Positions 9,201 to 39,623 of a DNA stretch of 42,653 nucleotides are shown here, piece by piece. The stretch is from assembly GCA_964563895.1 (NCBI GenBank), contig CAZLYY010000001.1:9112-51764 (forward strand), read 5' to 3'. A program made the translations under genes and the position numbers. This DNA comes from an uncultured Christensenella sp. (GTDB lineage: Bacteria > Bacillota > Clostridia > Christensenellales > UBA1242). Each line of letters opens with the position of its first letter. Position 1 is the stretch's first letter. Under the pieces are notes generated by a model. The model saw only the letters and a program-made list of their open reading frames with translations, did no database searches and was not told the origin of the DNA.

Positions 9201-9394
9201 TTGCGAACGAAGATGTTGCATTTTGTACCTTGGTGAAAAAGCCAAAAACAATTTGTATTGTTGATAGCGAAAACAATTTGTACTACAAGTCAAGCGACTT
9301 AATTCACATTATGTCCCGTCTTGACAAAGGTAAACCATTTGAAAAAACAAAGAAAATGATGTTTGTATCAAAAGGTTTTACCGCAATTGAATAA
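6260..9394 (+). CDS. parC: Type IIA DNA topoisomerase subunit A (GyrA/ParC family; ParC-like, no GyrA box seen) with an unusual ~255-aa K/E-rich N-terminal extension
   Basis: The ATG lies 3 nt after the subunit B stop, with SD aaagga. The conserved core starts near aa 262 ([30 protein letters not shown] ... [18 protein letters not shown] ... [21 protein letters not shown]). KPVQRR and EARLSP are ParC-like, and I found no QRRGGKG-type GyrA box in the C-terminal beta-pinwheel region. The gene pair is not next to dnaA/recF. Confidence 0.85.
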
Positions 9395-16420: not shown

Positions 16421-16454
16421 AAAAATCACTTTGGTTTTCAAGGTGATTTTTTTT
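16421..16454 (+). terminator. Rho-independent terminator of pnp
   Basis: The stem atcactttg (16425-16433) / caaggtgat (16439-16447), with one G-U pair, has a 5-nt loop and is followed by T8. Confidence 0.7.
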
Positions 16455-16792: not shown

Positions 16793-17371
16793 ATGCAAAA
16801 TATATCAAAGGTTCAAAGAGAAGTCCTTAATTCTAAAGGGCAAGTTGCAAAAAAAATGTGCAAGACGGTTTTGAATGCTTACAATTTGTTGCCATATATT
16901 ACAAGTTCAATAGATAGACTTGTGGCAAAAAAGGCAGAATCGTCAATGTGTTTGGCAGTTGGAAAAAGTGTAGAAAGTTATGCAAATGAAATGATTTTTT
17001 TGACGGAACAAAAGGTTAGTTTGATAAACTTAAAAGTTCTTATTGATGAAACCTTGAGTGAAATGAAGGAAAAGGAAGCGAGAATATTGCTTTTGAGATA
17101 TGTAGACAATGTAAAATGCGAAGATTGTTTGTCTATTTTAAATATGGACAAGCGAACATTTTTTAGACGTCTACCTATTGCGCTAAATTCCTTTTATAAA
17201 ATTTTCAATTTCAAACTTTGGCAAAGAAAATTGGCAAGCAAGGGAATAATGGGACAAATGAACAATGTTTTTATAAAAGTTAGAAAATTTGCCGACAATG
17301 GCGGAAATATCGCAAAAAACAAGGAAAATATTTGTGGACTTATTTTGAACAATCTTAGAAAAATGGTGTAG
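16793..17371 (+). CDS. Sigma-70 region-4-like HTH protein; candidate phage late-gene activator (ArpU/RinA/Xpf-like in role) or DNA-recognition factor of the adjacent capsid island
   Basis: The central segment EKEARILLLRYVDNVKCEDCLSILNMDKRTFFRRLPIALNSF looks like a sigma region 4 / LuxR-type HTH. I see no region 2 motif. SD aaaaagggg lies upstream. The function is inferred from position upstream of the terminase operon. Confidence 0.4.
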   Translation: MQNISKVQREVLNSKGQVAKKMCKTVLNAYNLLPYITSSIDRLVAKKAESSMCLAVGKSVESYANEMIFLTEQKVSLINLKVLIDETLSEMKEKEARILLLRYVDNVKCEDCLSILNMDKRTFFRRLPIALNSFYKIFNFKLWQRKLASKGIMGQMNNVFIKVRKFADNGGNIAKNKENICGLILNNLRKMV

Positions 17372-17378
17372 ACAACTT

Positions 17379-18215
17379 TTACAAAATATCATCGTGATAA
17401 TTTTCAATTTTCTTTATGTTTGAAGTTTTTTTAAGTTTAGGACTATTTGTAGTACACTCACAAGGCTTTTTGTGGGGCTTCTTAAAAAGGTTTGGTTTAA
17501 AAGCAAGCAGAAGCAAAAATATTGCAGGCAATAAAACAAGCAAAAGAAGAACAATTTTTACTCCGGGTGTTAAATCAACAAGGGAATAAAGATAATCGTT
17601 GTCGCTTTCACCAAAAGGATTGGCTATTGTTGTAACGACTTCGGTATTTTGTGGAATGGAACTATTCATTTCGCACAAGCCAGCATAAAAATAACCAAAT
17701 ACACCTTGTTTTGTCTTGCCATAATACCAAATTGTGCCACGACCTTTAGTCTTTTCTTCACCATTTGTATGCCCATAGTAAGTTACATTTTCATATTTTT
17801 CAATGGTAGTTAAGGCTTTTCCAGAACTTGTTGGACTATCCATAACAGTTGTCCCATCGGTAGTAAAGACATAAAAAGTTGCTTCGGCATATGGGGTGTT
17901 TGGCGTTTCATTTATAGCACTTACTTGTTCTTTTAAAATAAATCCCACAACATCTAGATATTGTGCCTTGTAAAACATCTCATTGTAGTTGGAAAGTAGC
18001 AAAACAAAATAACTTTTGGGAATTGCAAAAAGACAATTTTCATTTGTTGCATTGGGAGTTTTGTAGAGATTGACATCATCATTCTCTACTTTTGCATACA
18101 AAAAAGTAGTCATTTTTGCTTCGGCTTTTATGTTAAAGAAAGCCCCAAACGACAAAAAGGTGAGACAAAATAGAATTAAAATATAAACAATTGAATTTTG
18201 ATATTTGTTTTTCAT
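17379..18215 (-). CDS. Exported/membrane-anchored protein with two SH3b-like repeats and a C-terminal TM helix
   Basis: N-terminal signal/TM (IVYILILFCLTFLSFGAFF). SH3b-like strings VNLYKTPNAT...YKAQYLDVVGFILKEQV and TTVMDSPTSSGK...WYYGKTKQGVFGYFYAG. C-terminal TM IVLLLLVLLPAIFLLLLAF followed by a basic tail. Confidence 0.45.
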   Translation of the reverse strand: MKNKYQNSIVYILILFCLTFLSFGAFFNIKAEAKMTTFLYAKVENDDVNLYKTPNATNENCLFAIPKSYFVLLLSNYNEMFYKAQYLDVVGFILKEQVSAINETPNTPYAEATFYVFTTDGTTVMDSPTSSGKALTTIEKYENVTYYGHTNGEEKTKGRGTIWYYGKTKQGVFGYFYAGLCEMNSSIPQNTEVVTTIANPFGESDNDYLYSLVDLTPGVKIVLLLLVLLPAIFLLLLAFKPNLFKKPHKKPCECTTNSPKLKKTSNIKKIENYHDDIL

Positions 18216-18459
18216 TTGGTCCTGCCTTGTTAAACTTGAATTGTCTAAAACTCAACTTATTTTGTCTTTCAACAAATAAATTTTATACAAAATTATTATA
18301 GGGTATTTAGTCTTGAAAAAAGTGTAAATTTTTATCAAAAAATAAGGTTTTTAGGCTTTATAAGTAAATATTGACAAGTTGACAGTTATATAAACATTGT
18401 ATAACAAATTAGAAATTTAAAATTATCAAATATTTATTTTGTAAAAAGGTTTGATCATA

Positions 18460-19893
18460 ATGCAAAAAAATGTAATAAATAAACTAAAAAACGTGTGTGA
18501 AGAAATAACAAAACGCAAAGATGCTGACAAATTGTCTACATACAACACAGGCAAGATTGTCCACAAAAAGCAACTTGCTTTTCACAAGTGCAACAAACGA
18601 AATCGTTGGGTTTTTGGCGGAAATAGAACGGGGAAAACAGAATGTGGGGCGGTAGAAGTTGTATATCTAGCACGTGGCAACCACCCCTACAAACAAAACA
18701 AAAAAGACACAATTGGTTGGGTTGTTAGTTTGTCCAAACAAGTACAAAGAGATGTAGCCCAAAAGAAAATTTTGACTTATCTTAGCCCATATTATATAGA
18801 AGATGTGGTTATGCAAAGTGGGAAAAAAGACTTTCCTGAAAGCGGAGTGATAGACTACATAAAGGTTAAAAATGTTTTTGGTGGGACTTCAATAATTGGC
18901 TTTAAAAGTTGCGACCAAGGGCGAGAAAAGTTTCAAGGTGCAAGTCTTGATTATGTTTGGTTTGATGAAGAACCAACGGAAGAAATTTACCTAGAATGTC
19001 GTATGCGTGTACTTGACAAAAAGGGACAAATTTTTGGGACAATGACACCACTAAAAGGACTTACTTGGGTGTATGATGAAATTTATTTGAATGCAAAAAA
19101 CAGCAAAGAAGTGTGGTATGAAACAATGGAATGGGCGGACAACCCCTTTCTTGACCCCAATGAAGTGAGTTTTTTTGAAGAGTCGTTGTCCGAAGAAGAC
19201 CTAGAAAGTAGAAAATATGGAAGATTTTTCAATGCAAATGGGTTGGTTTATAAGGAATTTGATGAAAAAGTAAACGTGATTGACCCATTTGACGTCCCAA
19301 AAGATTGGTATGACAATATTTCAATTGACCCGGGGCTTAACAATCCATTGTCTTGTCATTGGTATGCGGTGGATTATGATGGCAATGTTTATGTTATTGC
19401 CGAACATTTTGAAAAAAATAGGGATATTGACTATCATTCACAAAGAATAAAAGAAAAATGTGAACAACTTGATTGGTTTGCGGACGAACAAGGCAATTAT
19501 TCCGCCTTGATAGATAGCGCAGCCGGACAACACACCTTGAATGGTGCCAAAAGTGTTGCCGAACTCTTTTACGAAAGGGGTATCAAAGTTAATACAAAAG
19601 TAAACAAAGATTTGTTTTCTGGCATTTCCGTTGTGAAAAGTTATCTTAAAAATTCTCTTGGAGTTAGCAAACTTTTTATTTTTAAAAATTGTACAAATTT
19701 AATTCGTGAAATAAAAAGTTATTTTTGGGGGGAAGGGGACAATCCAATAAAAAGAGACGACCACGCTTTAGACGAACTTAGATATTATCTTATGACAAAG
19801 CCCAAAGCACATTTTGAGCCTAAAACCGCACTTCAAAAATATAAAGATAAAATTATAAGAAAAGTAAATTTTGCTAGAAAATCTTTTGATTGA
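18460..19893 (+). CDS. Phage terminase large subunit (TerL)
   Basis: Walker A GGNRTGKTECGA, Walker B LDYVWFDEEP, coupling motif GTMTP, and the C-terminal RNase-H-like nuclease signature RDDHALDELRYYL. I preferred the ATG at 18460 to the TTG at 18451. Confidence 0.9.
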   Translation: MQKNVINKLKNVCEEITKRKDADKLSTYNTGKIVHKKQLAFHKCNKRNRWVFGGNRTGKTECGAVEVVYLARGNHPYKQNKKDTIGWVVSLSKQVQRDVAQKKILTYLSPYYIEDVVMQSGKKDFPESGVIDYIKVKNVFGGTSIIGFKSCDQGREKFQGASLDYVWFDEEPTEEIYLECRMRVLDKKGQIFGTMTPLKGLTWVYDEIYLNAKNSKEVWYETMEWADNPFLDPNEVSFFEESLSEEDLESRKYGRFFNANGLVYKEFDEKVNVIDPFDVPKDWYDNISIDPGLNNPLSCHWYAVDYDGNVYVIAEHFEKNRDIDYHSQRIKEKCEQLDWFADEQGNYSALIDSAAGQHTLNGAKSVAELFYERGIKVNTKVNKDLFSGISVVKSYLKNSLGVSKLFIFKNCTNLIREIKSYFWGEGDNPIKRDDHALDELRYYLMTKPKAHFEPKTALQKYKDKIIRKVNFARKSFD

Positions 19894-19925: not shown

Positions 19926-20210
19926 ATGGAAAACAAGGTGAGTGAAGATGTTGCTTTTTCTGCCTTGAAAAATTTGATAGAAGGAGCAACGACCATTGAA
20001 GAAATAGAAGAATACACCGTTGACAAAGAAAAGGGACTTGTTTTGAAAGGTACAAAAAAAGTTATAAAAAAACTTCCGCCCGATTTGAATGCGATAAAAA
20101 CAGTTTTATCTTTTGACAATTTGCAAAATGTTGAGCAAATGAGTGATGAAGAGTTGGAGCGGGAGAAACAAAAACTTTTCAAACAACTTTTAGACGAAGA
20201 AAAGAAATAA
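19926..20210 (+). CDS. Small acidic helical protein of unknown function between TerL and portal (possibly a remnant of a TerS oligomerisation region)
   Basis: Strong SD (aagggggaaaaATG), 94 aa. KKVIKKLPPDLNAIKTVL faintly resembles the C-terminal part of Firmicute-phage small terminases as I remember them. No HTH. Confidence 0.3.
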   Translation: MENKVSEDVAFSALKNLIEGATTIEEIEEYTVDKEKGLVLKGTKKVIKKLPPDLNAIKTVLSFDNLQNVEQMSDEELEREKQKLFKQLLDEEKK

Positions 20211-20262
20211 TTTGAAGGAACAATTTATAAAAATTTTATAAATGTACAAAAAAGGAGAAAGA

Positions 20263-21891
20263 ATGAAAAAAAAGAAAAATGATTTTGTTGAAGATTTGGT
20301 GCTTTCAGTTAGGGAAGACTTTTTAAAAAGGCAAAAAGAAAGAAAAATTTTTGAAAGTACTTGGCGTCTTAACAACAACTTTTTGTCCGGCAATCAATAT
20401 GTGGGCATTGACTCTTTATATGATATAAAGCAAGAAGACAAAGTTTTCTTTTGGCAAGAAAGAAAGGTTTACAACCACATTGCACCAATCATCGAACAAC
20501 GTCTTGCAAAACTCAATGCAATAAAGCCCGAAATGGATATAATGGCAAGCAGTTCCAACGAAAATGACCAAAAGGTTGCAAGTTTATCTCAAGATATTTT
20601 ACGTGGTGCTTACGAAAAGTTTAATTTGAGCCAAATTATATCAAAAGCAACCGTATGGAGTGAGATTGCGGGAACAAGTTTTTACAAAGTTGTGTGGAAT
20701 GGTGCTTCCGGTCGCAAAATTTATGATAAAAATGGCAAACTTGTATACGAAGGTGATGTTGAAATAAGCGCATTGTCCCCATTTGAAATTTATCCGGACA
20801 ACAATTATGTTGAAGATATAAATGAGTGCGAGAGCATTATTCACGCAAAGGCATATAGTGTAAAAGCAATAAAAAACATTTGGGGAGTAGATGTAAAAGG
20901 GGAAGAAGTTGATGTTTTTGATGCTTCAACAAGTTTAGAACCTATCAAACAAAACAATCAAGCAATTGTGATTGAACGATACGAAAGCCCAAGCATTGAG
21001 TATCCAAACGGACGACTTGTTATTGTATGCGAAGACAAACTTTTGTACGTGGGCGAGTTGCCTTTTGTCAATCTTCCAGACGGCAAAAGGGGATATCCTT
21101 TTGTAAAGCAAGTTTGTTTGCGTGTGCCAAATTGTTTTTGGGGGAAAAGTGTTATAGAAAAACTTATTCCAATCCAAAGGGCATACAATGCTATAAAAAA
21201 TAGAAAACACGAATATATAAATAGGCTTTCAATAGGTGTTTTGGCGGTTGAAGACGGCAGTGTCGATGTGGACGAACTATCTCAAGAAGGTTTGCAACCG
21301 GGGAAAATAATTGTATATAGGCAAGGCGCTACACCACCAAAATTTTTAGATGAAGAATCTCTTCCAAAAGATTTTGACACCGAAGAAGAAAATTTGCGAA
21401 ACGAATTTAGCGAAATTAGTGGGGTAACAAACATTTTATCCAATCAATTTAGTGCCAACACTTTGAGTGGAACGGCATTGCAACTTTTGATAGAACAAGA
21501 TACTTCACGATTAAGTTCAAGCGTTGATGAAATTGACAGAGCAATAAAATTGGTTGCAAAAATGATTTTGCGTTTGTACAAGCAATTTGCGGTTATGCCA
21601 CGATTGCTCAAAGTTGCAAACAATGTAGGCAAAGCCGACCTTGTGTATTTCAAAAATAGCGACCTAGGGGTTGAAGATGTAGTATTTACAACAGATAGTA
21701 GTTTGGCAGAAAGCCTATCAACAAAAAGAGAACATATTCTCAAACTTCTATCTTCAAATGTTTTAAAAGACAAAGATGGGAATGTGGACAGCGAAGTAAA
21801 ACGCAAGATTTTGGAACTTTTTGGAATGAATTTTGTTTTGCCAACTTCTCAAAAGGAAAATTTAGACAAAAAGCAAAACGAACAAAAATAA
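20263..21891 (+). CDS. Phage portal protein
   Basis: 542 aa directly after the terminase. The N-terminal ...FESTWRLNNNFLSGNQYV... (the E..W..N..F..GNQ motif common in portals), its size, and its position before scaffold and capsid support the call. The SD aaggag precedes the ATG at 20263 rather than the one at 20242. Confidence 0.75.
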   Translation: MKKKKNDFVEDLVLSVREDFLKRQKERKIFESTWRLNNNFLSGNQYVGIDSLYDIKQEDKVFFWQERKVYNHIAPIIEQRLAKLNAIKPEMDIMASSSNENDQKVASLSQDILRGAYEKFNLSQIISKATVWSEIAGTSFYKVVWNGASGRKIYDKNGKLVYEGDVEISALSPFEIYPDNNYVEDINECESIIHAKAYSVKAIKNIWGVDVKGEEVDVFDASTSLEPIKQNNQAIVIERYESPSIEYPNGRLVIVCEDKLLYVGELPFVNLPDGKRGYPFVKQVCLRVPNCFWGKSVIEKLIPIQRAYNAIKNRKHEYINRLSIGVLAVEDGSVDVDELSQEGLQPGKIIVYRQGATPPKFLDEESLPKDFDTEEENLRNEFSEISGVTNILSNQFSANTLSGTALQLLIEQDTSRLSSSVDEIDRAIKLVAKMILRLYKQFAVMPRLLKVANNVGKADLVYFKNSDLGVEDVVFTTDSSLAESLSTKREHILKLLSSNVLKDKDGNVDSEVKRKILELFGMNFVLPTSQKENLDKKQNEQK

Positions 21892-21967: not shown

Positions 21968-22393
21968 ATGGAAGAAAAAATGGAACAACTAGACTTTCAA
22001 GCAGAAAAGGAGAGCTCCAACTTGGGCAAATTCAAGGACGCACAAGCGCTTCTTGATGCCTACAACAATTTGCAAAGCGATTACACAAAAAAGTGTCAAG
22101 CATTGTCGTCTTTGCAAAAAAATCTCAAAGAAAATGAAGGGGAACAACCTTCACCTGAGAGAGAAAAAGAAGATTTATCTAGTGAAGATAGGATAAAACT
22201 TCTTCAAGACTATGTCTACAACAATTCTGACTTCCGAGACAAACTTTTGGCAAAATATTTTGATGATATTATTCTTCCCAAAAGTCCACGACTTATAGGG
22301 AGTGATAGGGGTAGCGATACCATTGTTAGCCCTGTATCCAAACCAAAGACCTTGGAAGAAGCAGGAAAAATTGTTAGGGATATGTTGAAATAA
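21968..22393 (+). CDS. Capsid scaffolding protein (candidate)
   Basis: 141 aa, highly charged and helical. LGKFKDAQALLDAYNNLQSDYTKKCQAL resembles the conserved N-terminal string of Firmicute-phage scaffold proteins. It sits between portal and capsid, and no prohead protease gene is present. Confidence 0.6.
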   Translation: MEEKMEQLDFQAEKESSNLGKFKDAQALLDAYNNLQSDYTKKCQALSSLQKNLKENEGEQPSPEREKEDLSSEDRIKLLQDYVYNNSDFRDKLLAKYFDDIILPKSPRLIGSDRGSDTIVSPVSKPKTLEEAGKIVRDMLK

Positions 22394-22501: not shown

Positions 22502-23671
22502 ATGGTAACATTAGATTCAGCACAAAATGCATTAAAATCAGTATATCTTGGAGTTTTATCCGAACAACTCAACATAAAATCCAATGCATTTTTATCAAAA
22601 ATTAAACAAAGTAGCAAAGACGTTTATGGCAAGGAAATAATCAAACTTGCACCATATGGTCTTAATGGTGGGATATGTGCATCAAGCGAAACAGGTACAT
22701 TGCCAACCGCATCTTCTCACAAATTTTTGCAATTTAAGAGTGGGCTTAAAAACCTTTATGGAACAATATCTATTTCAGACAAAGCAATCAGGGCAAGTAT
22801 GTCCGATAGTGGTGCTTTTGTAAATCTTTTGAGTGATGAAATGGACAGCCTTGTCAAGTCAAGTGCTTTCAATCTTGGTCGTATGGTTTATGGGGACGGC
22901 ACAGGTCTTTTGGCAACAGTTACAGTAGCAGATTCAAAGACAACTTTTAACAGTGTCAAAAATTTTGTTGAAGGAATGAAAGTTGATATTTATAGTAGCA
23001 CAGGGGCACTTGCAAAGAGTGGACTTGTCGTTACTTACGTTGACAGAACAAACAAAACAATTACATTGAGCGAAGGTTATACTTTTGTGAATGGTGATAA
23101 AATTTACGCTTGTGGTTCAAAGGACAACGAAATTACAGGTATAAAAAGACTTTTTGACAAGACAGAAGCAAATAGAATGCTTTATGGCGTTGATAGAACA
23201 AATTATGCTTGGCTTTATCCTTATGTGGAAGAAAATTCTAAAACAGCAGTGGAAATAAGCGATTCTCTTATCCAAACAGCACTCAATTCAATTGAAGAAG
23301 AAACAGGTTCGCAAGTAGACTTTATTGCGGTTTCAGGCGATGTAAGAACGGCTTATCAAAAGTATTTATCCGCCAATAGACGCAACCTTGATATAGAAGT
23401 TTTGGCAGGTGGGTACAAGGCTATGACTTATGCTGGGATACCTGTCGTTTACGAAAGATTTGTTGACGATGGAACAATGTATCTTCTCAACACACAAGAC
23501 TTCAATTTGCACCAACTTTGCGATTGGGAATGGCTCACAACAGACAACGGAAGCATACTCATACCATCTGCAACAAGTCCAACATACACAGCAACCCTTG
23601 TAAAATATGCCGAACTTATTTGCGATAGACCAGGTGCACAAGGCAAAATTTCTAATATTAAAAATTCTTAA
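22502..23671 (+). CDS. Major capsid protein (presumed HK97-fold/P22-coat-like)
   Basis: 389 aa, Ala/Gly/Thr-rich and low in charge clusters. The strings ...LYGTISISDKAIRAS...AFVNLLSDEMDSLVKSSAFNLGRMVYGDGTGLLA... are typical of annotated phage major capsid proteins. Canonical position after the scaffold gene. Confidence 0.75.
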   Translation: MVTLDSAQNALKSVYLGVLSEQLNIKSNAFLSKIKQSSKDVYGKEIIKLAPYGLNGGICASSETGTLPTASSHKFLQFKSGLKNLYGTISISDKAIRASMSDSGAFVNLLSDEMDSLVKSSAFNLGRMVYGDGTGLLATVTVADSKTTFNSVKNFVEGMKVDIYSSTGALAKSGLVVTYVDRTNKTITLSEGYTFVNGDKIYACGSKDNEITGIKRLFDKTEANRMLYGVDRTNYAWLYPYVEENSKTAVEISDSLIQTALNSIEEETGSQVDFIAVSGDVRTAYQKYLSANRRNLDIEVLAGGYKAMTYAGIPVVYERFVDDGTMYLLNTQDFNLHQLCDWEWLTTDNGSILIPSATSPTYTATLVKYAELICDRPGAQGKISNIKNS

Positions 23672-23793: not shown

Positions 23794-23823
23794 TTGCAAA
23801 AAGATAATAAAAAGGGAAAAATT

Positions 23824-24195
23824 ATGAAAGGAAAAATAAAATTAACAAGAGATTTTTTCAATATTTCTCAAAGGCTAAAAAAGATTGATAGAGAGTATGA
23901 CCTTGTTTTTGACAAGGAAAGAAAAATTTTTGAAGTGTACATAGGCAAAGTTTTTTGTTTTAAAATTGGGGAAAAACTTGACAATTTAGCCCTCAAAAAG
24001 GCCTACGAAACACATATAAGGAACAAAAAGATTTTGCTTGAAAAGATAGAAAAAGACAATATGCTTTTGGAGAAAAAAGAAAAGGAACAAACAATAAACA
24101 AGGCAAAATTTGACTTAAAAAATATGATTGAATTTGCATCAAAAACAGGAAAAGATGAGAATTTTTATAACATAAATTCAACCAAATGGTTTTAA
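23824..24195 (+). CDS. Hypothetical structural/assembly protein (123 aa, basic, helical)
   Basis: SD aaaaggg lies before the ATG at 23824; the track ORF starts at the TTG at 23794. No motif recognised. Confidence 0.4.
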   Translation: MKGKIKLTRDFFNISQRLKKIDREYDLVFDKERKIFEVYIGKVFCFKIGEKLDNLALKKAYETHIRNKKILLEKIEKDNMLLEKKEKEQTINKAKFDLKNMIEFASKTGKDENFYNINSTKWF

Positions 24196-24207: not shown

Positions 24208-24774
24208 ATGACCGTATTAGAATTGTTAAAGATAGCAAGCAATTATCTTTCTATTGATAAGGAACTTCAAATTTTTTTTGAAGAAAGTGATACAAGCAGT
24301 GCAACCGATGAAGCAAAAAGCAAATTTAACAAACTTTTGCTTAGTTTCAACAATATTATAAACGAAATTGCATTGCACAAAGCACCAACAAAAACTATTG
24401 AAGTTGAGACTTCTTTTGGCTTAAACGAGATTGATTTAAGTGCTCAAAATTGCAACAAAGTGTTAAGTGTAAAATTAAAAAACGGCAAAAGATTGACCTT
24501 TTTACAAACAGGGCAGGTTGTTGTTTTTGATTGTTTGTCAAGAGAAAAAGTTTTGATAGAATACTCCTTTATTCCCAAAATTTACAAGGCGGACGACAAT
24601 CTTGATATTTTTACAAACATAGGCAATAGACTTCTTGCCATAGGTATTGCAAGCGAGTATTGCTACCTTGACGAAGTTTTTGACGATGCAAAAGAGTTGA
24701 GAGAAGAATTTGAAAAAGGTTTAAAGTCTATCCTTACAAAAAATGGTTTTATGCAAGGGAGAAATTTTGTATGA
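24208..24774 (+). CDS. Candidate head-to-tail adaptor (position and size equivalent to P22 gp4)
   Basis: 188 aa with SD aaaaggag. Its 4-nt ATGA overlap with the next ORF implies coupling. Assigned only from gene order (TerL-portal-scaffold-coat-gp4-gp10 in P22) and size (gp4 is ~166 aa). Confidence 0.35.
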   Translation: MTVLELLKIASNYLSIDKELQIFFEESDTSSATDEAKSKFNKLLLSFNNIINEIALHKAPTKTIEVETSFGLNEIDLSAQNCNKVLSVKLKNGKRLTFLQTGQVVVFDCLSREKVLIEYSFIPKIYKADDNLDIFTNIGNRLLAIGIASEYCYLDEVFDDAKELREEFEKGLKSILTKNGFMQGRNFV

Positions 24775-26228
24775 CATTAAAGAAAAATAAAATAGTTTAT
24801 AAAAATTTTTCACAAAACTTTAATTTTGATGATAGTGAATATCTCACTTCAACAAATTGCAGTTTAAAGTACAATGTTCAATCTTCAAAAGGGTATTTGA
24901 CCGAAGGGAAAGGACTAAAAAAACTATGCTTGCCATTTTTTTATCCAACAGTCCCAACCGAAGTTGAAACATCTTCTCAAAATTTCAATTTTGTTAGGAT
25001 TTGGTATTATTCTTATTATAGTGAAACGGATAAAAAGCAAAAATATTTTATGATTGCATTTGGCAACGACAATTATTTATATTATTCAAATTTGCATACA
25101 CACGCAGGGAAGTTTTACAAAATCCCCAATTGTTCGGCATTGTCATCTGTGCCAGATACAATCAACTTTATGTTAGGCACCGACTCTGTCATTGGTTTTG
25201 CATCAACAACAGACAATCTTCTTGTATGGTATTGCGACAAAGACCCTTACTTAGCCAAAAACACACCACGTTTCAAATCTATTTGTTTGCATGGGGATAG
25301 ACTTTTTGCCATTGATGCAGATGAAGATAATGTTGTGAGATATAGCGCCACCTACAACCCGCTTGACTGGAAAAAGGATATTTCTTCTTCCGAAGACGCG
25401 GACAAAATCACACTCAATGACTACAAAAGCAATTTGCAAAAATTGGTGTCCTTTAACGATTTTGTTTATGTCTTTCACGACTATGGCATATCCAAAATTA
25501 CAAGTTACAATTTAACCAAAAAATTTTATTGCACAAACATTTACAACACAACTAGCAAAATTTATACCAACACAGTTTGTGTATGTGGAGAGTATATCTA
25601 TTTTTTGCAAGAAGACGGCTTGTATAGGTTGGATAAAACAGATATAAAAAGAATAGATTTCAAGTTTTCCGACCTTTTTATGCACAATCAAGACGAAGCA
25701 AATAGTTGCTATTTTGATGGAAAATATTATCTTGCTTGCAAACTTGACTTTAATGATGGGGAAGAATCTACATACAACAACTCTCTTGTAGAATTTGATT
25801 TTGAAAACAACGAATTTAACATAATAAAAGGCATTGATATAGTGTCTATGCTACCAATCAATATATCTGGTGTAAACAAAATAGTTATTGCAAGGCGAGA
25901 TAAAAATATTTTGTACGAACTCACTTCTACTTCACAAATAGACTCACTTGCTACATTTAAATTTTGGCAAAGCGGACAAATAACTTTTGGAACAATTGAT
26001 GACAAGAAAATAATAAAAGATTTGCATATTTACTCAAAATATGATTGCGATTTTACAATCACTTCAAATAAAAAAACTTTTAAGTTTTCTATCAAAGGGC
26101 AAGACAAAATTCAACGTGTGCCGATTAATCTTGTGGGGAATGAATTTAAGTTTTCTTTGTCATCTACCGCAGATAAAATGCTTATAAAATATCTTGAAAT
26201 AAATTATGTTACAAAAAGTTATGATTAA
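24771..26228 (+). CDS. Candidate tail hub/nozzle or DNA-stabilisation protein (position and size equivalent to P22 gp10); beta-rich and repeat-like
   Basis: 485 aa (P22 gp10 is ~472 aa). It is rich in Y/F/N/D beta-strand-like repeats (DFVYVFHDYGISKIT, GEYIYFLQEDGLYRLD, DGKYYLACKLDF), which suggests a beta-propeller or beta-sandwich. No sequence-level identification. Confidence 0.35.
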   Translation: MTLKKNKIVYKNFSQNFNFDDSEYLTSTNCSLKYNVQSSKGYLTEGKGLKKLCLPFFYPTVPTEVETSSQNFNFVRIWYYSYYSETDKKQKYFMIAFGNDNYLYYSNLHTHAGKFYKIPNCSALSSVPDTINFMLGTDSVIGFASTTDNLLVWYCDKDPYLAKNTPRFKSICLHGDRLFAIDADEDNVVRYSATYNPLDWKKDISSSEDADKITLNDYKSNLQKLVSFNDFVYVFHDYGISKITSYNLTKKFYCTNIYNTTSKIYTNTVCVCGEYIYFLQEDGLYRLDKTDIKRIDFKFSDLFMHNQDEANSCYFDGKYYLACKLDFNDGEESTYNNSLVEFDFENNEFNIIKGIDIVSMLPINISGVNKIVIARRDKNILYELTSTSQIDSLATFKFWQSGQITFGTIDDKKIIKDLHIYSKYDCDFTITSNKKTFKFSIKGQDKIQRVPINLVGNEFKFSLSSTADKMLIKYLEINYVTKSYD

Positions 26229-26328: not shown

Positions 26329-26406
26329 ATGGATAAAGAAAAATTTGACGAAAAGGAAATCAAGGAAGAGTTTATGAAACTCTTGATAAAACTTGGATTA
26401 TACTAA
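26329..26406 (+). CDS. 25-aa micro-ORF with a strong SD upstream of the holin-like genes
   Basis: aaaaggagacaaaatATG; MDKEKFDEKEIKEEFMKLLIKLGLY*. It stops 1 nt before the ATG of the next gene. Confidence 0.3.
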   Translation: MDKEKFDEKEIKEEFMKLLIKLGLY

Positions 26407-26407
26407 T

Positions 26408-26629
26408 ATGTGGGAAGAAATCTTTAATCAAGCGACTACAAATGGAATATGGGCGGTGCTTTTTGTTGGTTTGCTATTTTTCATCTTGACGGATAGTGCA
26501 AAACGCGAGAAAAAGTATCAAGAAACCATTGCAAAACTCAATTCACACCTAGATTGTGTGGAAGATATAAGAGACGAAATAAAAGAAATAAGGACATCAC
26601 TTATTAAAAAAGGAGATGTTAAAAATTGA
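26408..26629 (+). CDS. BhlA/UviB-family holin-like protein
   Basis: MWEEIFNQATTNGIWAVLFVGLLFFILTDSAKREKKYQETIAKLNSHL... has a single N-terminal TM followed by a charged coiled tail. This matches the layout and local motifs of SPbeta BhlA and C. perfringens UviB as I recall them (...GPFAVLFCWLLFYVMKTSKERESKLY...). Confidence 0.6.
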   Translation: MWEEIFNQATTNGIWAVLFVGLLFFILTDSAKREKKYQETIAKLNSHLDCVEDIRDEIKEIRTSLIKKGDVKN

Positions 26630-26988
26630 AAGATTCAAAAACAAATTTAGATGAAAACATTCAAGACACAACACAAGACACAGAACAAATTTTGGGGAAC
26701 ACACTTGACAATGACACGCAAGAAGAAAAGCCAACTTTCAACCCAAGCAGTTTATCTTTTTGGGTGGGACTTATAGCCATAATTTTAGGAACGCTTGAAG
26801 CATTTTTAATTGCTTTCAATGTCCAACTTGAAATAAACCTTTTGGTTGAAGGTGTGTCGACAATTCTTTTTGCTTTTGTTTGTTTTGGTGTTTTAAAAAC
26901 AAACAACAAAGTTATAACAAAAGACGATATAAAGTCTTCTCTTGAAGAAAATTTAAAATCAAAGAATAAAGATAAAAACGAAGAATAA
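26626..26988 (+). CDS. Two-TM small membrane protein (holin-like/antiholin-like) with an acidic N-terminus and a basic C-terminus
   Basis: The TTG start overlaps the previous stop by 4 nt (TTGA). TM1 is FWVGLIAIILGTLEAFLIAF and TM2 is VSTILFAFVCFGVL, followed by a charged C-terminal tail. Confidence 0.45.
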   Translation: MKDSKTNLDENIQDTTQDTEQILGNTLDNDTQEEKPTFNPSSLSFWVGLIAIILGTLEAFLIAFNVQLEINLLVEGVSTILFAFVCFGVLKTNNKVITKDDIKSSLEENLKSKNKDKNEE

Positions 26989-27368: not shown

Positions 27369-28310
27369 ATGATTTTTAGAAATACTTTTAGGTTACTTTT
27401 AAGCAATTTTTCCAATGTTTGGAAAATGCTTGTTTATTATTGTATTTGTGTTGCGTTGACTTTTTGTGTTTGTGGTGTGCTTATTCACCCTATTATTGTA
27501 AAATTGTCCGAAGCAAATGTCTTTCAAGATTTTGCAGAAGCGGTAAACGGCTTGTTTTCCGCCACACCTACAACAACCGCAATTTCTTTGCAAGAAGTAG
27601 GACGTGTTGCTTTGTCAATTCTTTTGTCAAAAGAGTTGGTTGCCAATTTTATAATTTTGTGTTTTTGGCTTGCTATTGTTTTTCCTTTTACATTAGATTT
27701 AGCACAACTTCCTATGGGGGAAGTGTTGTATGGATATATGAGTAGTCAAACAAAATATGGCTTTACAGGTCGTTTTATAAAGACTATTGGCAAGAGTGCG
27801 GAATATAGCATTATTAGGATTTTTATGACATTGCTATTCAATGCATGTATTTTGGGGTTGACTTATTTGATAGTAAAGATTGCAACATATGGCAATCCAC
27901 TCTATTTAGGGCTAGATATTCTTTTGTTGGCGGTTATGTTTGTTGTCGTTGCACTCAAATATTCACTTCTTTCTTGTTGGATGCCTGCAATTTCCGTTCT
28001 TGATATGGGTGTTTTTGAAGCATTACGTCAAAACTTTAGATGTATTTCTAGACGTTTTGGAAGTATCTTTTCCAATTGTTTGCTTCTTGTTATGTCCGCT
28101 TTTGTATTCAACCTTATTTTTGGTGTGTTTTCATTTACCGTTTCATTTGTCGTATCATTGCCACTCACCGCATTTGTTTTTGTAGTTTTTCAAATGGTTA
28201 GTTTCTTTTCTGTACAAGGAATGAGATTTTATGTCTATCCTGATTTGTTTATTTCTCCTAAAACTTTTGAAGAATCTCTCAGCGTTGACGACTCAAAATA
28301 TATCATTTAA
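27369..28310 (+). CDS. Polytopic membrane protein of unknown function (about 6-7 TM helices)
   Basis: 313 aa made of successive hydrophobic segments (MLVYYCICVALTFCVCGVLI, FIILCFWLAIVFPF, IFMTLLFNACILGLTYLIV, ILLLAVMFVVVAL, LLLVMSAFVFNLIFGVFSF...). No catalytic motif recognised. Confidence 0.5.
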   Translation: MIFRNTFRLLLSNFSNVWKMLVYYCICVALTFCVCGVLIHPIIVKLSEANVFQDFAEAVNGLFSATPTTTAISLQEVGRVALSILLSKELVANFIILCFWLAIVFPFTLDLAQLPMGEVLYGYMSSQTKYGFTGRFIKTIGKSAEYSIIRIFMTLLFNACILGLTYLIVKIATYGNPLYLGLDILLLAVMFVVVALKYSLLSCWMPAISVLDMGVFEALRQNFRCISRRFGSIFSNCLLLVMSAFVFNLIFGVFSFTVSFVVSLPLTAFVFVVFQMVSFFSVQGMRFYVYPDLFISPKTFEESLSVDDSKYII

Positions 28311-28656: not shown

Positions 28657-30780
28657 ATGGAAGAAAATAAAAGAAATTTTTGGGTGCCAGCGATGAGCAA
28701 CAAACGCACCACGTACAGTTCTGATGTTGATAGCAAGAACGACCACTCATCTACATCAGCAAAACAAAACATTAAAAAAAATGTTAAAGTAGAAGCAAAG
28801 ACTCAAAAAAATGAAAAGATTGCTTCTCAAAAGAAGTCGTCAAAACCAAAGGAAAACAAAACCAATAAAGTCCAAAAAACTACTACCACAAAGCCTTCAC
28901 CAAAGAAGTCTTTGAATAGTACTGGTTCAAAAAAGACAACAAATAGGGGTAAAAAGTCAACTAATACACAAGTCAATTTGACCAACGACCAAACTCTTTC
29001 ATTGAAGAATTTGAGTGCAAGAAAAAAGAATAATGACAAAAAAGACCTTTTTTCTGACAATATCACATCTGACCGCACAGAAAAATCTTTGATAGAAAAG
29101 AAACAAATTCCAGACCTTGGCAAATCAAATTTGCGTATCACTTTTATTGGCGGAATTGGCGAAATTGGCAAAAATATGACCGTTCTTGAATATGGCGATG
29201 ATATGATTATGATTGACGCAGGGCAGTCTTTCCCAGACGAAACTGCTCCTGGGATAGATTCTGTTGTGCAAGACCTTAGTTATGTAGAAGCAAACAAGAA
29301 AAAACTTCGTGCTATTTTTATAACTCACGGGCACGAAGACCATATTGGCGGACTTTGGTATGCTTTAAAAACTGTCAAAGCACCAATTTATGGTTCCGCT
29401 GTTTCTTTGGGACTAATTGAAGGCAAACTTGCCGAAGCGAAAGAACTTGATGGCACTGTTCTCAAATGTGTCAAAGCAGGCGCAACTGTTAGTGCAGGAA
29501 AATTTAAAGTGGAATTTGTTTCAATGACTCACTCCATTCCGGGTGCATTTGGGCTTGCAATTACCACTCCTGTTGGTACGATTTTCCATACAGGCGATTT
29601 CAAAATTGACGCTACTCCAATAGGCAATGATTATTGTGATTTAAAGCGTATTGCCGAACTTGGCAAAAAGGGTGTTTTGCTCCTTATGAGTGATAGCACC
29701 AATGTTGAAAGACAAGGTTTTTCTCTTAGCGAATCCGTTGTTGGAAAGACTTTCAAGCAACTTATTTCCAATTATAGAGAACAAAGAATTATCATTGCGA
29801 CATTTGCTTCAAACATTCATAGATTGCAACAAATTGCTGATTTTGCAAAGGAATTTAATAGAAAAATTGCATTTACAGGTAGAAGTATGCGCAATGTTTC
29901 CGAAATGGCTATGAAAATTGGCGAACTTCATTGTGATAGAGATTTGATTGTTGATATTGACAAAATTGACAAATACGAAGACAAGGAAATTATCATTATA
30001 TCCACGGGTTCACAAGGCGAAGTTATGAGTGCTCTCAATCGTATGGCACTTGACGACTATCCAAAGATTAAACTTGGGGATAACGATGTTGTTATTTTGT
30101 CTTCATCTCCAATTCCAGGAAATGAAAAACAAATAAACAATTTGATAAACCAACTTTATAGAAAGAATTGCAAAATTATTTACAACGAAATAGCCGAAGT
30201 CCACGCTTCTGGGCACGCTTATAAAGAAGAACTTAAAATTATTTTATCTCTTGTAAGGCCAACTTTCTTTATTCCTGTCCATGGGGAATATAGACACCTT
30301 AAAAACCAACAACTTTTAGCCAAAGAAATGGGTATGCCAGAAAGAAATATTATTATTCCAGAACTTGGTATGCAAGTGGAAGTTGCAAAAGATTTCATCA
30401 AGGTTGCAGGGCAAGTGCCAGCAGGCGATGTCCTTATTGATGGAACAGGTCGTGGCGACAAAGATAGCGATGTTATTCGTGATAGACTTTATCTCGCAAA
30501 AGAGGGAATGTGTGTCGTTGTTATAAAAATTGATGAGAATTCAAAACAAGTTGTAGCAAAACCAAGAATATATTCTCGTGGATTTATTTATAAAGATGAG
30601 TTAAATGAAATTTTGACTGGCTCACAAGATTTTATTTTGGAACAACTTGCACTTGTAGATTTGAAAGCCTTTGAAAGCACAAGAGAAATAGAAGCCTATG
30701 TTAAAAAGATAGCACTTTCTTATTTTTCAAAACATACCAAAAGGCGTCCAATGATTGTTCCTATTGTTATGGAAGTGTAA
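28657..30780 (+). CDS. rnj: Ribonuclease J (beta-CASP metallo-beta-lactamase RNase) with a ~157-aa Lys/Ser/Thr/Asn-rich N-terminal extension
   Basis: The core starts at NLRITFIGGIGEIGKNMTVLEYGDDMIMIDAG. It includes HITHGHEDHIGG (HxHxDH), the beta-CASP region and EVHASGHAYKEEL. SD aaaagg precedes the ATG at 28657. Confidence 0.93.
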   Translation: MEENKRNFWVPAMSNKRTTYSSDVDSKNDHSSTSAKQNIKKNVKVEAKTQKNEKIASQKKSSKPKENKTNKVQKTTTTKPSPKKSLNSTGSKKTTNRGKKSTNTQVNLTNDQTLSLKNLSARKKNNDKKDLFSDNITSDRTEKSLIEKKQIPDLGKSNLRITFIGGIGEIGKNMTVLEYGDDMIMIDAGQSFPDETAPGIDSVVQDLSYVEANKKKLRAIFITHGHEDHIGGLWYALKTVKAPIYGSAVSLGLIEGKLAEAKELDGTVLKCVKAGATVSAGKFKVEFVSMTHSIPGAFGLAITTPVGTIFHTGDFKIDATPIGNDYCDLKRIAELGKKGVLLLMSDSTNVERQGFSLSESVVGKTFKQLISNYREQRIIIATFASNIHRLQQIADFAKEFNRKIAFTGRSMRNVSEMAMKIGELHCDRDLIVDIDKIDKYEDKEIIIISTGSQGEVMSALNRMALDDYPKIKLGDNDVVILSSSPIPGNEKQINNLINQLYRKNCKIIYNEIAEVHASGHAYKEELKIILSLVRPTFFIPVHGEYRHLKNQQLLAKEMGMPERNIIIPELGMQVEVAKDFIKVAGQVPAGDVLIDGTGRGDKDSDVIRDRLYLAKEGMCVVVIKIDENSKQVVAKPRIYSRGFIYKDELNEILTGSQDFILEQLALVDLKAFESTREIEAYVKKIALSYFSKHTKRRPMIVPIVMEV

Positions 30781-31446: not shown

Positions 31447-32148
31447 TTAATTTTTAAAAGGATTATCTTTTCCAATTTTTTCTCTTATTTCTTCAATTGC
31501 TTTTTTTTCAAGTCTACTTATGTACGACCGCGAAATATTGAGTTTTTTAGCAATTTCTCTTTGCGCATAAATTGGAGTGTTGCCAAGCCCATATCTCATA
31601 GATAAAATTTGATATTCTCGTTCGTTTAATGTGTCTTTTGCAAGATTAATCAATCTTTCGGTTAAAACAGAATTTTCAACATTTTCAATCACGTCTTCAT
31701 CGTTTGGAATAATATCTTGCAACGAAACTTCATTGCCGTCTTTATCTTTTCCTAGTGTTTCGCTAAGGGACATAACTTGTGTGTGTTTTTTGTTGACTCT
31801 TAAAAGCATTAAAATTTCATTTTCAATACAACGTGCCGCATAGGTAGAGAATTGTGTATTTTTGCCATATTCAAAAGTATTGACCGCTTTGATAAGCCCA
31901 ATAGAACCAACAGATATAAGGTCATCACTTTCAGCAGAACCCCCATATTTTTTTGCAACATGTGCAACAAGTCTTAGGTTGTGAGAAATGAGTTTTTCTT
32001 TTGCCTTTTTATCCCCATTTTTATATCTTCTAAAGTACTCTTTTTCTTGCTTTTCTTCAAGTGGTTTTGGAAAATTTGAAGCATTATTGACATAGGCAGA
32101 AAAAAGCATAATTTTATTCATAAAAGCCATAAAACTCTCAACAATCAT
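31447..32148 (-). CDS. sigK: Sporulation sigma factor, pro-sigma-K type (uninterrupted)
   Basis: A pro-sequence-like hydrophobic N-terminus, then NASNFPKPLEEKQEKEY, NLRLVAHVAKKY, DLISVGSIGLIKAV, STYAARCIENEILMLLR, GKDKDGNEVSLQDII and QREIAKKLNISRSYISRLEKKA. NLRLVAH, YAARCIENEILM and QREIAK..ISRSY match SigK better than SigE as I recall both. Confidence 0.7.
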   Translation of the reverse strand: MIVESFMAFMNKIMLFSAYVNNASNFPKPLEEKQEKEYFRRYKNGDKKAKEKLISHNLRLVAHVAKKYGGSAESDDLISVGSIGLIKAVNTFEYGKNTQFSTYAARCIENEILMLLRVNKKHTQVMSLSETLGKDKDGNEVSLQDIIPNDEDVIENVENSVLTERLINLAKDTLNEREYQILSMRYGLGNTPIYAQREIAKKLNISRSYISRLEKKAIEEIREKIGKDNPFKN

Positions 32149-38229: not shown

Positions 38230-38463
38230 TTGTCTCTCCTTTTTTATAAAACTTTGGCAAAATTGCTTTATTGCCACAATTTTTGCCACAATTTACACTC
38301 TTTTACTATATCACTAATAAAGCAAATTTCAAAAAGATTTTCATTGTTTTAATAAAAAGAAAATATATAAATTTTTTAGACGTAATTATTGCTATATTTT
38401 TATTTTGTTATGGATAAATTCTAATATTTTTCAATTTAACATATATATGTGTAGGCGGTGTGT

Positions 38464-38727
38464 ATGTTTTTTTTACTTGATGAAATTTCAAAAATGAGTG
38501 GACTTCCTTTGGATATGATAAACAAAGGTTTTAGGATAATAAATTTTTGCAACAAGGCTGTGTATGTAGAAGGTTACACCGCCTTGATAGATGTAAATTT
38601 AAACGAAATTGGCATAAAACTCAAAAAAGGACTTATCAAACTCAATGGGGACGATTTGAAAATAAAAAATATGACACTTGACACTCTTCTTGTAACGGGC
38701 GACATTAGACAAATTGAAATGGGGTAA
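38464..38727 (+). CDS. yqfC: Sporulation protein YqfC (YabP/YqfC family)
   Basis: ...LPLDMINKGFRIINFCNKAVYVEGYTALIDVNLNEIGIKLKKGLIKLNGDDLKIKNMTLDTLLVTGDIRQIE matches the YqfC layout and is followed by yqfD. The exact start is uncertain (GTG 38458, ATG 38464 or ATG 38494). Confidence 0.7.
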   Translation: MFFLLDEISKMSGLPLDMINKGFRIINFCNKAVYVEGYTALIDVNLNEIGIKLKKGLIKLNGDDLKIKNMTLDTLLVTGDIRQIEMG

Positions 38728-38729
38728 AA

Positions 38730-39623
38730 ATGGCAAAAACTCTTTATAGAATAACGGGACTAAATTTTAAAAAGTTTTTAAACGAACTCAAAAAAAACAA
38801 AATAACAATTTTGTGCCTTACAAAAATAGACTACAATCAATTTGAAATTATGGTAGACAACTCTCAACGATTTTTGTCTATTTGCAAAGATTTTAAATAC
38901 AAAGTGGACGAAGTAAAATTGTCAAAAAAAGAAAAATTTTTGCGACTATTCAAAAGAAACTTTATTTTTGTTTTGCTTTCAATCATTATTTGTTTTTCTA
39001 TTTGCTTTTCGTCAAATTTTGTGTTTAGAGTGGAAATTTATGGACTTGAAAGCGTAGACAAAGAAGAAATTGTAAATGTTTTAAATAAAAATGGTTACAA
39101 GGTTGGACAATTAAAAAACAAGTACGATTTGGACAATATACAACCAATTTTGGTTAAAAATATAGATAAAATAAGTTATGCAACGGGGATAATAAAGGGA
39201 AGTACTCTTGTTGTTAGTGTTTATGAAAAAATTGACAACAGCCCCTATATTTATGACTATTTGCCCATTTTTGCCCCTTTTGATTGTATTGTAAAAGAGA
39301 TTTCTTTGGTGTCTGGGACGATAAAAGTTGCACAAAACGAAATGGCAAAAGCGGGGGACACAATAATTGCCCCTTATGTTGAAACAAAAGATTTCAAATG
39401 CTTGCCAATTCCTGCCAAAGCACAAATAAAAGCCTATGTTGAGATAAAAGAAAATATCCAAGTGGACAAAAATTTGGATAATGTGCAAAATTTAATTGAA
39501 GAATTGAAAAAAAAGTTGTATAATACCTTATCTTGCAAGGTTAAATCATATATTGTTGATGAAGAAATCGTGCAAGAGAACAATCTTTTGACCGTAAAAT
39601 TGTATGGTACAATTGAGTTTTAA
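38730..39623 (+). CDS. yqfD: Sporulation protein YqfD
   Basis: ITGLNFKKFLNELKKNKITI..., a central TM (FIFVLLSIIICFSICF), then FRVEIYGLESVDKEEIVNVLNKNGYKVG. This is collinear with B. subtilis YqfD, though shorter (297 aa). Confidence 0.7.
   Translation: MAKTLYRITGLNFKKFLNELKKNKITILCLTKIDYNQFEIMVDNSQRFLSICKDFKYKVDEVKLSKKEKFLRLFKRNFIFVLLSIIICFSICFSSNFVFRVEIYGLESVDKEEIVNVLNKNGYKVGQLKNKYDLDNIQPILVKNIDKISYATGIIKGSTLVVSVYEKIDNSPYIYDYLPIFAPFDCIVKEISLVSGTIKVAQNEMAKAGDTIIAPYVETKDFKCLPIPAKAQIKAYVEIKENIQVDKNLDNVQNLIEELKKKLYNTLSCKVKSYIVDEEIVQENNLLTVKLYGTIEF

Follow-up and report, generated by a model that had tools for sequence, protein, structure and literature searches.

To our knowledge, gene transfer agents (GTAs) have long been known almost solely from Alphaproteobacteria. 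In Faecalibacterium prausnitzii, a podovirus-like GTA-like element, FpGTA, has been shown experimentally and, in the part of the article available to us, is called the first GTA-like element of podovirus-like morphology (PMC12946183, Nat Commun 2026). According to the same part, operon I of FpGTA (10.5 kb) encodes a small terminase (TerS) without its DNA-binding domain, the large terminase (TerL), a portal, a coat protein and a P22 gp10-like nozzle; operon II (5.5 kb) encodes a BppU-like fibre, an upper fibre, a receptor-binding protein (RBP), an RBP anchor, a holin and an endolysin; and the capsids measure ~40 nm, show no visible tail and contain ~9 kb of host DNA (PMC12946183). Here, we describe a phage-like island within a 42,653-nucleotide stretch (the window) of an uncultured Christensenella sp. 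(assembly GCA_964563895.1, contig CAZLYY010000001.1, positions 9,112 to 51,764), which probably encodes a GTA-like particle of podovirus type that has been domesticated, has a minimal tail of adaptor plus nozzle and is kept by selection in a large group of gut Clostridia. A literature search found no earlier description of this cluster and a single relevant paper, the one on FpGTA, whose available part reports GTA-type packaging of short fragments in Christensenellaceae-labelled genomes (HGM11616: 4.1 and 7.1 kb) and names no cluster there (PMC12946183).

As far as the available part of that article goes, FpGTA and the island share a chromosomal head operon of gut Clostridia, a TerS that appears to be devoid of its DNA-binding domain, TerL, a portal, a gene in the scaffold position, a coat and a P22 gp10-like nozzle; moreover, each occurs nearly throughout its host group, and a podovirus-like particle is inferred for each (PMC12946183). 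They differ in arrangement, since FpGTA has a second operon for its fibres, RBP and lysis, whereas here holin genes come right after the nozzle and targeted searches found no fibre locus. Furthermore, FpGTA has been documented by transmission electron microscopy, proteomics and DNA-size data, whereas the cluster described here is known from its genes (PMC12946183).

Two genes that share a 4-base overlap code for proteins of 188 amino acids (aa; 24208..24774, + strand) and 485 aa (24771..26228, + strand). A sequence-only reading of the window had likened them, by size and gene order, to P22 gp4 and gp10. Alignments of relatives (56 and 19 sequences) were built for the two proteins, and structures were then predicted. 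The 485-aa model (predicted local distance difference test score, pLDDT, 89.4; predicted template modelling score, pTM, 0.89) is almost entirely beta, and its Foldseek nozzle matches comprise Pa223 (1e-20), VP1 (TM 0.77), the PhiM1 nozzle, P22 gp10 (TM 0.60), SU10 and T7 gp12, the best of them with a TMq of 0.71-0.77 across more than 550 alignment columns. Matches in the viral library BFVD include proteins named 'P22 Gp10 DNA-stabilising'. Beyond a weak match to the 'virion structural protein' family phrog_3287 (7e-5), the protein is without a curated family, and a tblastn search of 50,697 phage records returned no match.

The 188-aa model (pLDDT 85.4) combines a helical bundle with a beta domain. 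All 15 of its Foldseek matches at E<=0.001 come from phage portal-tail, neck or virion reconstructions, mostly podophage portal-tail ones, and are labelled adaptor wherever the entry names the chain; they include KHP30 (8e-7), SU10 (TM 0.63), N4, crAss001 and T7 gp11. VIA-align gave Z scores of 13.1 for cyanophage A4, 11.9 for GP4, 11.5 for SU10 and 8.7 for T7 gp11, the adaptor matches (A4, GP4, KHP30, SU10, N4, VP1 and T7) covering 156-176 residues. By sequence, the protein had no Pfam match even at E<=5 and no PHROGs match, and PF24175 (SU10_adaptor) was matched solely by a distant homologue in another locus, L029 (6.6e-10), not by the window protein. A proposed kinship between the adaptor and the 'tubular tail protein' of Arthrobacter phage Brad was dropped, as hhalign of the adaptor alignment found no similarity.

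Judged by these predicted structures, the 188-aa protein is a podovirus head-to-tail adaptor and the 485-aa protein a tail nozzle, and the nozzle gene directly follows the adaptor gene in ~100 related loci as well. A dodecameric adaptor and a hexameric nozzle in a podovirus-type particle would best explain the data, as part of an overall reading that we hold to be probable. The proposed equivalence with gp4 and gp10 was therefore right in function for both models, which match adaptor and nozzle proteins rather than unrelated folds, with an adaptor of the T7/SU10 fold. The suggestion that the 485-aa protein might double as an RBP found no such footing: no extra domain was seen and the nozzle matches span its length.

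Comparison with P22 and T7 helps to place this tail. The P22 late operon (3-2-1-8-5-4-10-26-14-7-20-16, with tailspike 9) and the island share their order through the nozzle, a PF16510 portal and the lack of a prohead protease, and their adaptors and hubs are similar in size. Unlike P22, the island is without the gp26 needle, the ejection proteins gp14/7/20/16, the tailspike and lysogeny or replication genes, is chromosomally fixed, and has its shortened TerS between TerL and portal; the fold of its adaptor, which includes a beta domain, is that of T7/SU10, and P22 gp4 is not among the matches listed. The likeness to T7 lies in the adaptor fold (gp11, Z 8.7-8.9) and in the beta-propeller fold of the nozzle (gp12), whereas the nozzle is ~300 residues shorter than gp12 and neither a gp17 fibre nor the core proteins gp14-16 are present.

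Upstream of the adaptor, the head and packaging genes form a uniformly oriented series, with every ORF from TerL to the nozzle on the + strand. TerL (480 aa, 18451..19893) matches PF03237 (2.3e-13), PF17289 (6e-4) and phrog_2 (1e-30), and its translation contains Walker A-like (GGNRTGKT) and Walker B-like (VWFDEE) motifs. The portal (549 aa, 20242..21891, + strand) is of P22 type (PF16510 P22_portal, 1e-20; PF23899 SU10_portal, 1e-7; phrog_156, 2.4e-40). The major capsid protein (389 aa, 22502..23671, + strand) belongs to the podovirus-type HK97 fold family NF033394 capsid_maj_Podo (1.1e-73; 248 bits, cut-off 80) and matches phrog_14242 (6e-55); by coat and portal, the closest phages are Arthrobacter and Microbacterium podophage-like genomes at ~25% identity. 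Between portal and coat, a 141-aa ORF (21968..22393, + strand) has no Pfam match, is conserved in relatives, and by its position and its charged, helix-rich sequence is a putative scaffolding protein. No protease family was recognised in the island (Pfam, PHROGs), in line with the P22-type assembly that the sequence-only reading had proposed, and the ORF list likewise bears out the order it had given: TerL, portal, scaffold, coat, a protein of 123 or 133 aa, the adaptor and the nozzle, followed by a holin.

The ORF between TerL and portal (94 aa, 19926..20210, + strand) resembles a small terminase that is without its N-terminal DNA-binding part. In profile alignment by hhalign (probability 95.8, E 7.5e-9), residues 9-73 correspond to residues 63-131 of a 150-aa TerS (phrog_309, 5e-32), which in a related cluster lies upstream of TerL. 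Across 82 loci the ORF in this position has a median length of 101 aa and is short in nearly all, and tblastn alignments of these ORFs to the full TerS start no earlier than about residue 45, except in L028, L030 and L168, three relatives of a more phage-like kind that alone have full-length forms. On these alignments, the 94-aa ORF is a TerS without its DNA-recognition part. That the missing part binds DNA is weakly suggested by a helix-turn-helix match (phrog_3855, 9e-4) together with general knowledge. A profile comparison of the 94-aa alignment with Protein Data Bank (PDB) sequences returned spurious designed-repeat proteins only.

A further conserved protein precedes the adaptor (133 aa, 23794..24195, + strand; 123 aa if read from the ATG at 23824). 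In the alignment of its relatives (17 sequences), D20, R27, Y35, L62 and N89 are invariant, and most homologues of the same genus end in a T-[RK]-W-[IF] motif. No match was obtained in Pfam, PHROGs, NCBIfam or Atlas, nor below E 2.8 in a PDB profile search; the pre-adaptor ORF of Arthrobacter phage Brad was discarded as a relative (hhalign probability 0.6). As a separate observation, the C-termini of the 133-aa homologues and of the adaptor homologues are mostly alike, T-[RK]-W-[IF] and R-R-W-[LF], and that of the window adaptor differs (GRNFV).

Regarding distribution, 23 of the 24 further genomes of this genus carry the 485-aa gene, at identities from 76% down to 25%, with two matches solely in one genome, where they are the two halves of the gene on separate contigs; 9 of 16 genomes chosen to represent other families of the order have it too. 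The cluster is collinear in 13 loci of the same genus, from the regulator at its left edge to rnj and sigK as far as the contigs extend, with identities of 69-77% for the coat and 66-75% for TerL against 52-69% for the essential RNase J. Searching one genome per species with the coat alignment turned up at least 591 relatives, bearing names such as uncultured Clostridia, 'Christensenella sp.' metagenome-assembled genomes, Borkfalkia, Fimimonas and the cultured Pumilibacter; among the best 80 loci, which were inspected, gene order was identical in all and rnj was the right-hand neighbour in 22. Clusters in other families are flanked by genes that are also present in this window, namely murG, a polysaccharide deacetylase gene and the gene for a single-stranded DNA-binding protein (SSB). 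Within the order, 50 of 121 evenly drawn genomes carried the coat gene, 47 of them with a single match, and presence was largely all-or-none per family (4/4, 4/4 and 3/3 in families f1, f19 and f17; 0/4 in each of eight families); in a sample of 200 genomes of the class, just 6 outside the order had it.

These genes are also maintained by purifying selection. Compared with the closest relative, the ratio of nonsynonymous to synonymous substitution (dN/dS), approximate because dS was saturated (1-2.5, with two genes not computable), was 0.04 for TerL, 0.06 for the portal, 0.05 for the coat, 0.11 for the adaptor, 0.09 for the nozzle, 0.04 for the holin and 0.16 for the 133-aa ORF, giving a range of 0.04-0.17 over the computable cluster genes, next to 0.07 for rnj and 0.03 for pnp. 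Over 19 taxa, coat and rnj distances were correlated (Spearman 0.69, with none of 2000 Mantel permutations as high) and coat divergence was smaller than rnj divergence. The cluster appears to be inherited vertically with its host, and its retention in a reduced genome of 786 kb also counts in favour of a domesticated module.

Taken by itself, the gene order could be that of a P22- or T7-like prophage decaying after the loss of its tail-accessory, ejection and lysogeny genes, since it looks like a podophage late operon cut off after the nozzle, and a related 34.8-kb prophage-like contig does have a full TerS and large tail proteins. This explanation is contradicted by ORFs that remain intact and collinear over ~100 loci, with coat identity from 89% down to ~45% and the low dN/dS values above, and also by the single copy, the all-or-none presence by family and the adjacency to rnj kept across genera, all of which leave it very improbable. 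In fact, the island is not a prophage, because it combines conserved synteny, single copy and purifying selection with a lack of integrase, replication and lysogeny genes: all ORFs of at least 60 aa from pnp to rnj were scanned against Pfam, PHROGs and NCBIfam, and among them no integrase, repressor, replication or lysogeny gene was found. Of the three outcomes that the sequence-only reading had left side by side (a hub that also binds receptors, parts supplied in trans, or no infectious-type vehicle), the comparative data favour the last, because the cluster is chromosomally fixed, under purifying selection and apparently vertically inherited.

Phage-like relatives of the cluster do exist. 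The head module occurs twice in one genome of the order, and the second copy (L031, G033:C1:2216300-2236200; also L162) is GC-rich (67%). This copy corresponds to the 34.8-kb contig in IMG/VR and is probably a true prophage relative; it encodes a full TerS as well as a tail protein of 807 aa (phrog_21973, phrog_1330) and, after the nozzle, has a further ORF of 704 aa. In two other relatives a phrog_4577 tail protein follows the nozzle; this type of protein was found in none of the best 80 loci. Because phage-like relatives carry post-nozzle tail proteins and most loci do not, the gene content indicates that the ancestral phages had tail accessories and that the conserved chromosomal form is mostly without them. 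Separately, related coat proteins (P0214, P0342-P0355) form one cluster at 50% identity on many independent contigs of ~15.8-16.6 kb, each of which may be the whole genome of a very small free phage belonging to this capsid lineage.

Many of the 'viral contigs' retrieved from IMG/VR (L115-L171) are fragments of this cluster, several with rnj, sigK or membrane-protein flanks; the chromosomal cluster is counted as virus in virome catalogues. Such listings, together with the presence of head, packaging and connector genes and the absence of fibres, would also suit a capsid-forming satellite resembling the capsid-forming phage-inducible chromosomal islands (cf-PICI), which makes its own heads and takes tail parts from a helper phage. 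We regard this as hardly credible, given that the island showed neither an integrase nor any gene for replication, excision or interference, that its chromosomal position is fixed and housekeeping flanks (rnj, sigK and the gene for a 313-aa membrane protein) accompany it on the IMG/VR contigs too, and that it has its own lysis genes and its own nozzle, which in podoviruses is the tail.

The sequence-only reading had also remarked that needle, ejection and receptor-binding genes are missing, and here it was borne out: no family of needle, ejection protein, fibre or tailspike was recognised from pnp to rnj (Pfam, PHROGs, NCBIfam), the small unassigned ORFs included. Genome-wide searches for fibre and tail genes were targeted and sequence-based, in a genome that is 92% complete. 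Within that scope, phrog_4577, the family that adjoins the nozzle in two relatives, gave no match; tblastn with the tail proteins of phage-like relatives gave short chance-level matches only (best E 0.017); the extra post-nozzle ORFs of relatives had no match at E<=0.1; and no paralogue of a cluster gene was found outside the window by tblastn. Since the gap from the nozzle to the next known gene has a median of 241 bp over 93 loci, most clusters leave no room for a fibre gene. In about 10 of the 93, an additional ORF of 320-610 aa does separate the nozzle from the lysis genes (for example L141:8383-11507, L046:13678-15249, L080:13646-15070 and L113:11401-14116); apart from one pair, they show almost no similarity to each other, none of them matches a Pfam or PHROGs family, and they are candidates for lineage-specific fibres or RBPs.

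In this context, the particle might be a complete GTA-like or phage-like one whose genes for fibres, RBP or plug lie at a second locus unlinked to this one, which would be a variant of the favoured reading and not exclusive of it. The available part of the FpGTA article describes such an arrangement, with operon II ~125 kb from the head operon (PMC12946183); besides, the extra ORFs of some relatives sit where podophages have their fibres, and the assembly, in 115 contigs, is incomplete. The failure of the phrog_4577, tail-protein and extra-ORF searches, the lack of paralogues outside the window and the short post-nozzle gap speak against a second locus, to a degree limited by the targeted, sequence-based nature of these searches, as fibres are often unrecognisable by sequence. 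Overall, we consider this variant a minority possibility, though not a negligible one.

In T7-type tails, the nozzle closes the channel by itself and there is no needle (e.g., structure entry 6r21). By analogy, the absence of a needle is not necessarily a gap here, as a T7-type nozzle would seal the channel. Of the earlier statement that nothing would seal the channel or bind a cell, the part on the missing needle and RBP stands, and the part on sealing is weakened, for the nozzle may itself be the seal. Taken together, the sequence-only reading held for the adaptor and nozzle assignment and for the missing parts, and was not borne out for the multifunctional RBP; the sealing gap need not be one.

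Lysis genes follow at once. The next ORF after the nozzle encodes a BhlA-family holin (26393..26629, + strand; PF10960, 4.5e-17; phrog_2429, 4e-13) that is 62-82% identical across the genus, and it is followed by a 120-aa membrane protein (26626..26988, + strand) with a weak Phage_holin_1 match (E 0.17). ORFs in the same position in other families match Phage_holin_1 (8e-6) and phrog_297 (6e-11), and by this comparison the 120-aa protein is a probable second holin. In other genera, a DUF7934 (PF25588) gene is found between nozzle and holin (L025:5164-6183, L026:7043-7999, L027:3917-4903, L029:15388-16086 and L030:3848-4846, for example). Since two relatives carry DUF7934 in fusion with PG_binding_1 or LysM, it is probably a phage-type cell-wall hydrolase and the lysin of those clusters. 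Its single weak match in the genome studied here (17 bits), inside UvrB, was set aside as noise.

With such an apparatus, the particle could have been domesticated and selected for a role other than delivery, either programmed lysis with DNA release or killing and competition as in PBSX, with packaging as a by-product. Neither the family searches of the island nor the targeted genome searches yielded proteins for receptor binding or ejection, the best-kept of the small genes encodes the BhlA holin, whose PHROG families are annotated as 'involved in bacteriocin production or immunity', and the FpGTA authors, in the available part of their article, leave the same question open for FpGTA (PMC12946183). 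Nevertheless, TerL, the portal and the shortened TerS are among the most constrained genes (dN/dS 0.04-0.06), which is hard to square with irrelevant DNA, and a nozzle-only tail has no obvious killing device; we therefore hold a non-delivery role to be unlikely.

Like the GTA of the RcGTA type in Alphaproteobacteria, the cluster is non-replicating, phage-derived, under purifying selection and apparently host-inherited; as far as the available parts of the articles go, TerS of the RcGTA type is without sequence-specific DNA binding (PMC6854486), and alphaproteobacterial GTAs are also kept in reduced genomes (PMC9254644). Unlike this cluster, RcGTA is siphovirus-like, with a prohead protease, tail tube, tape measure and fibres, and the two belong to different phyla and are unrelated at the family level. 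PBSX of Bacillus subtilis is likewise Gram-positive, chromosomally fixed and phage-derived, and it packages host DNA and is released by lysis; in the available part of the FpGTA article it is a myovirus-like killing particle with a contractile tail (PMC12946183), and its parts are not homologous to those of this cluster.

Under the favoured reading of a domesticated, GTA-like podovirus-type particle, a putative activator of late genes, encoded at the island's left edge, would turn the operon on in a subpopulation of cells, and proheads would be built on the portal with the scaffold and without a protease. TerL, together with a TerS that has no DNA-recognition domain, would then package host DNA by the headful with no sequence preference; adaptor and nozzle would close the portal vertex, with the nozzle as plug as in T7-type tails; and the holins would lyse the cell and release the particles, in other genera alongside the putative peptidoglycan hydrolase DUF7934. 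The DNA might then be delivered to recipient cells.

A number of observations weigh against this reading. Delivery is doubtful because the targeted searches identified no receptor-binding component, and particle production, DNA packaging and transfer are proposed from the gene content. In this genus no endolysin was recognised, and the DUF7934 gene, present in 38 of 80 loci, is absent. Most relatives do not keep pnp as the left-hand neighbour, and the coat gene is split in 2 of the 50 positive genomes, so that decay does occur. The dS saturation noted above loosens the estimates of selection and, within the genus (10 taxa), the distance correlation with rnj is weak by Spearman (0.09-0.39), with Pearson values of 0.68-0.77 and 0-1 of 2000 Mantel permutations as high. 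Finally, the FpGTA precedent serves as an analogue and not as a shown homologue, because its coat is annotated, in the available part of the article, as 'N4-gp56 family' in contrast to capsid_maj_Podo here, a difference by annotation only (PMC12946183); set apart by this annotation, the two look like analogous lineages, possibly independent.

A more specific version of the favoured reading can be put forward tentatively, with the odds somewhat against it: the cluster would be a self-contained, fibre-less podovirus-type GTA made of portal, adaptor, self-closing nozzle and perhaps the 123-aa protein, an ancient single-copy module of much of Christensenellales that is kept even at ~0.8 Mb. Such a GTA would be independent of FpGTA, would have the smallest tail known for a GTA, and would be the source of the short-fragment, GTA-type packaging that human faecal virus-like particles have shown for genomes labelled Christensenellaceae.

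The host genome is of low GC, with 0% contamination. The island lies between pnp (end 16387) and rnj (start 28657), and the module proper is about 11.5 kb long (16.8-28.3 kb), more than 1% of the genome; the window contains no tRNA. Around it are the housekeeping genes murG, floA, those for gyrB-/gyrA-type topoisomerase subunits, recJ, rpsO, pnp, rnj and sigK, as well as mgsA, tex, yabP, yqfD, ybeY, era and recO. At the left edge, a 192-aa sigma-region-4/ArpU-like protein (16793..17371, + strand), the putative late-gene activator, matches Sigma70_r4_2 (3e-3), DUF1492 (0.013) and the transcriptional regulator/activator families phrog_36 (2e-6) and phrog_248 (1e-4), and its position is unchanged in relatives. 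Divergent from TerL, a 278-aa membrane protein (17379..18215, - strand) with an SH3b-like ectodomain has hydrophobic segments at both its N- and C-terminus; its Atlas neighbours (score 0.96) are Bacillota clusters with SH3_3 in 12-37% of members, and its position is conserved in genus and order. Between the lysis genes and rnj, a polytopic membrane protein of 313 aa (27369..28310, + strand) has no Pfam match, was found with 48-56% identity in 11 loci of the same genus, and accompanies rnj in many loci of other genera but not in every cluster of other families; its membership of the module is uncertain.

A promoter and terminator scan of the island, otherwise uninformative, located the pnp terminator at 16421-16451. 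Upstream of TerL, a search for a late-promoter motif over 31 distinct loci found short AT-rich words only, plus a loose TGTC...T-rich element near the ribosome-binding site, which was dropped as too weak for a genome scan.

Among the flanking genes, several further observations were made. Sporulation genes are kept despite the small genome, namely SigK (NF004471, 2e-82), YabP and YqfD (31447-32148 and 38458-39623 of the window). RNase J (28657-30780) has a Lys/Ser/Thr-rich N-terminal extension of ~150-170 residues before its metallo-beta-lactamase domain; its Pfam domains start at residue 171, and tblastn alignments to relatives begin at residues 13-159, mostly at or beyond 117, by which the extension is variable. 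The GyrA/ParC-type protein (6260-9394) is 1044 aa long with its DNA_topoisoIV domain beginning at residue 273, which implies an unusual N-terminal extension or insertion of ~240 residues. The SSB-family protein (10549-11190) has 213 aa, of which only residues 105-200 form the OB domain, and a long SSB form (216 aa; phrog_26861, 8e-30) adjoins the cluster in another family (L026:9661-10311).

In brief, the cluster would represent a second podovirus-like GTA-like lineage in gut Firmicutes, probably independent of FpGTA; in a prominent order of gut bacteria, at least 591 species-level genomes carry it. If true, it would account for bacterial DNA in virome preparations and for loci catalogued as viral contigs. 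The presence of a cultured carrier among the loci (Pumilibacter intestinalis CLA-AA-M10, L113) makes experiments feasible, and a tail as minimal as the one predicted here asks what is the least equipment with which a tailed particle may hold DNA and deliver it across a Gram-positive wall.

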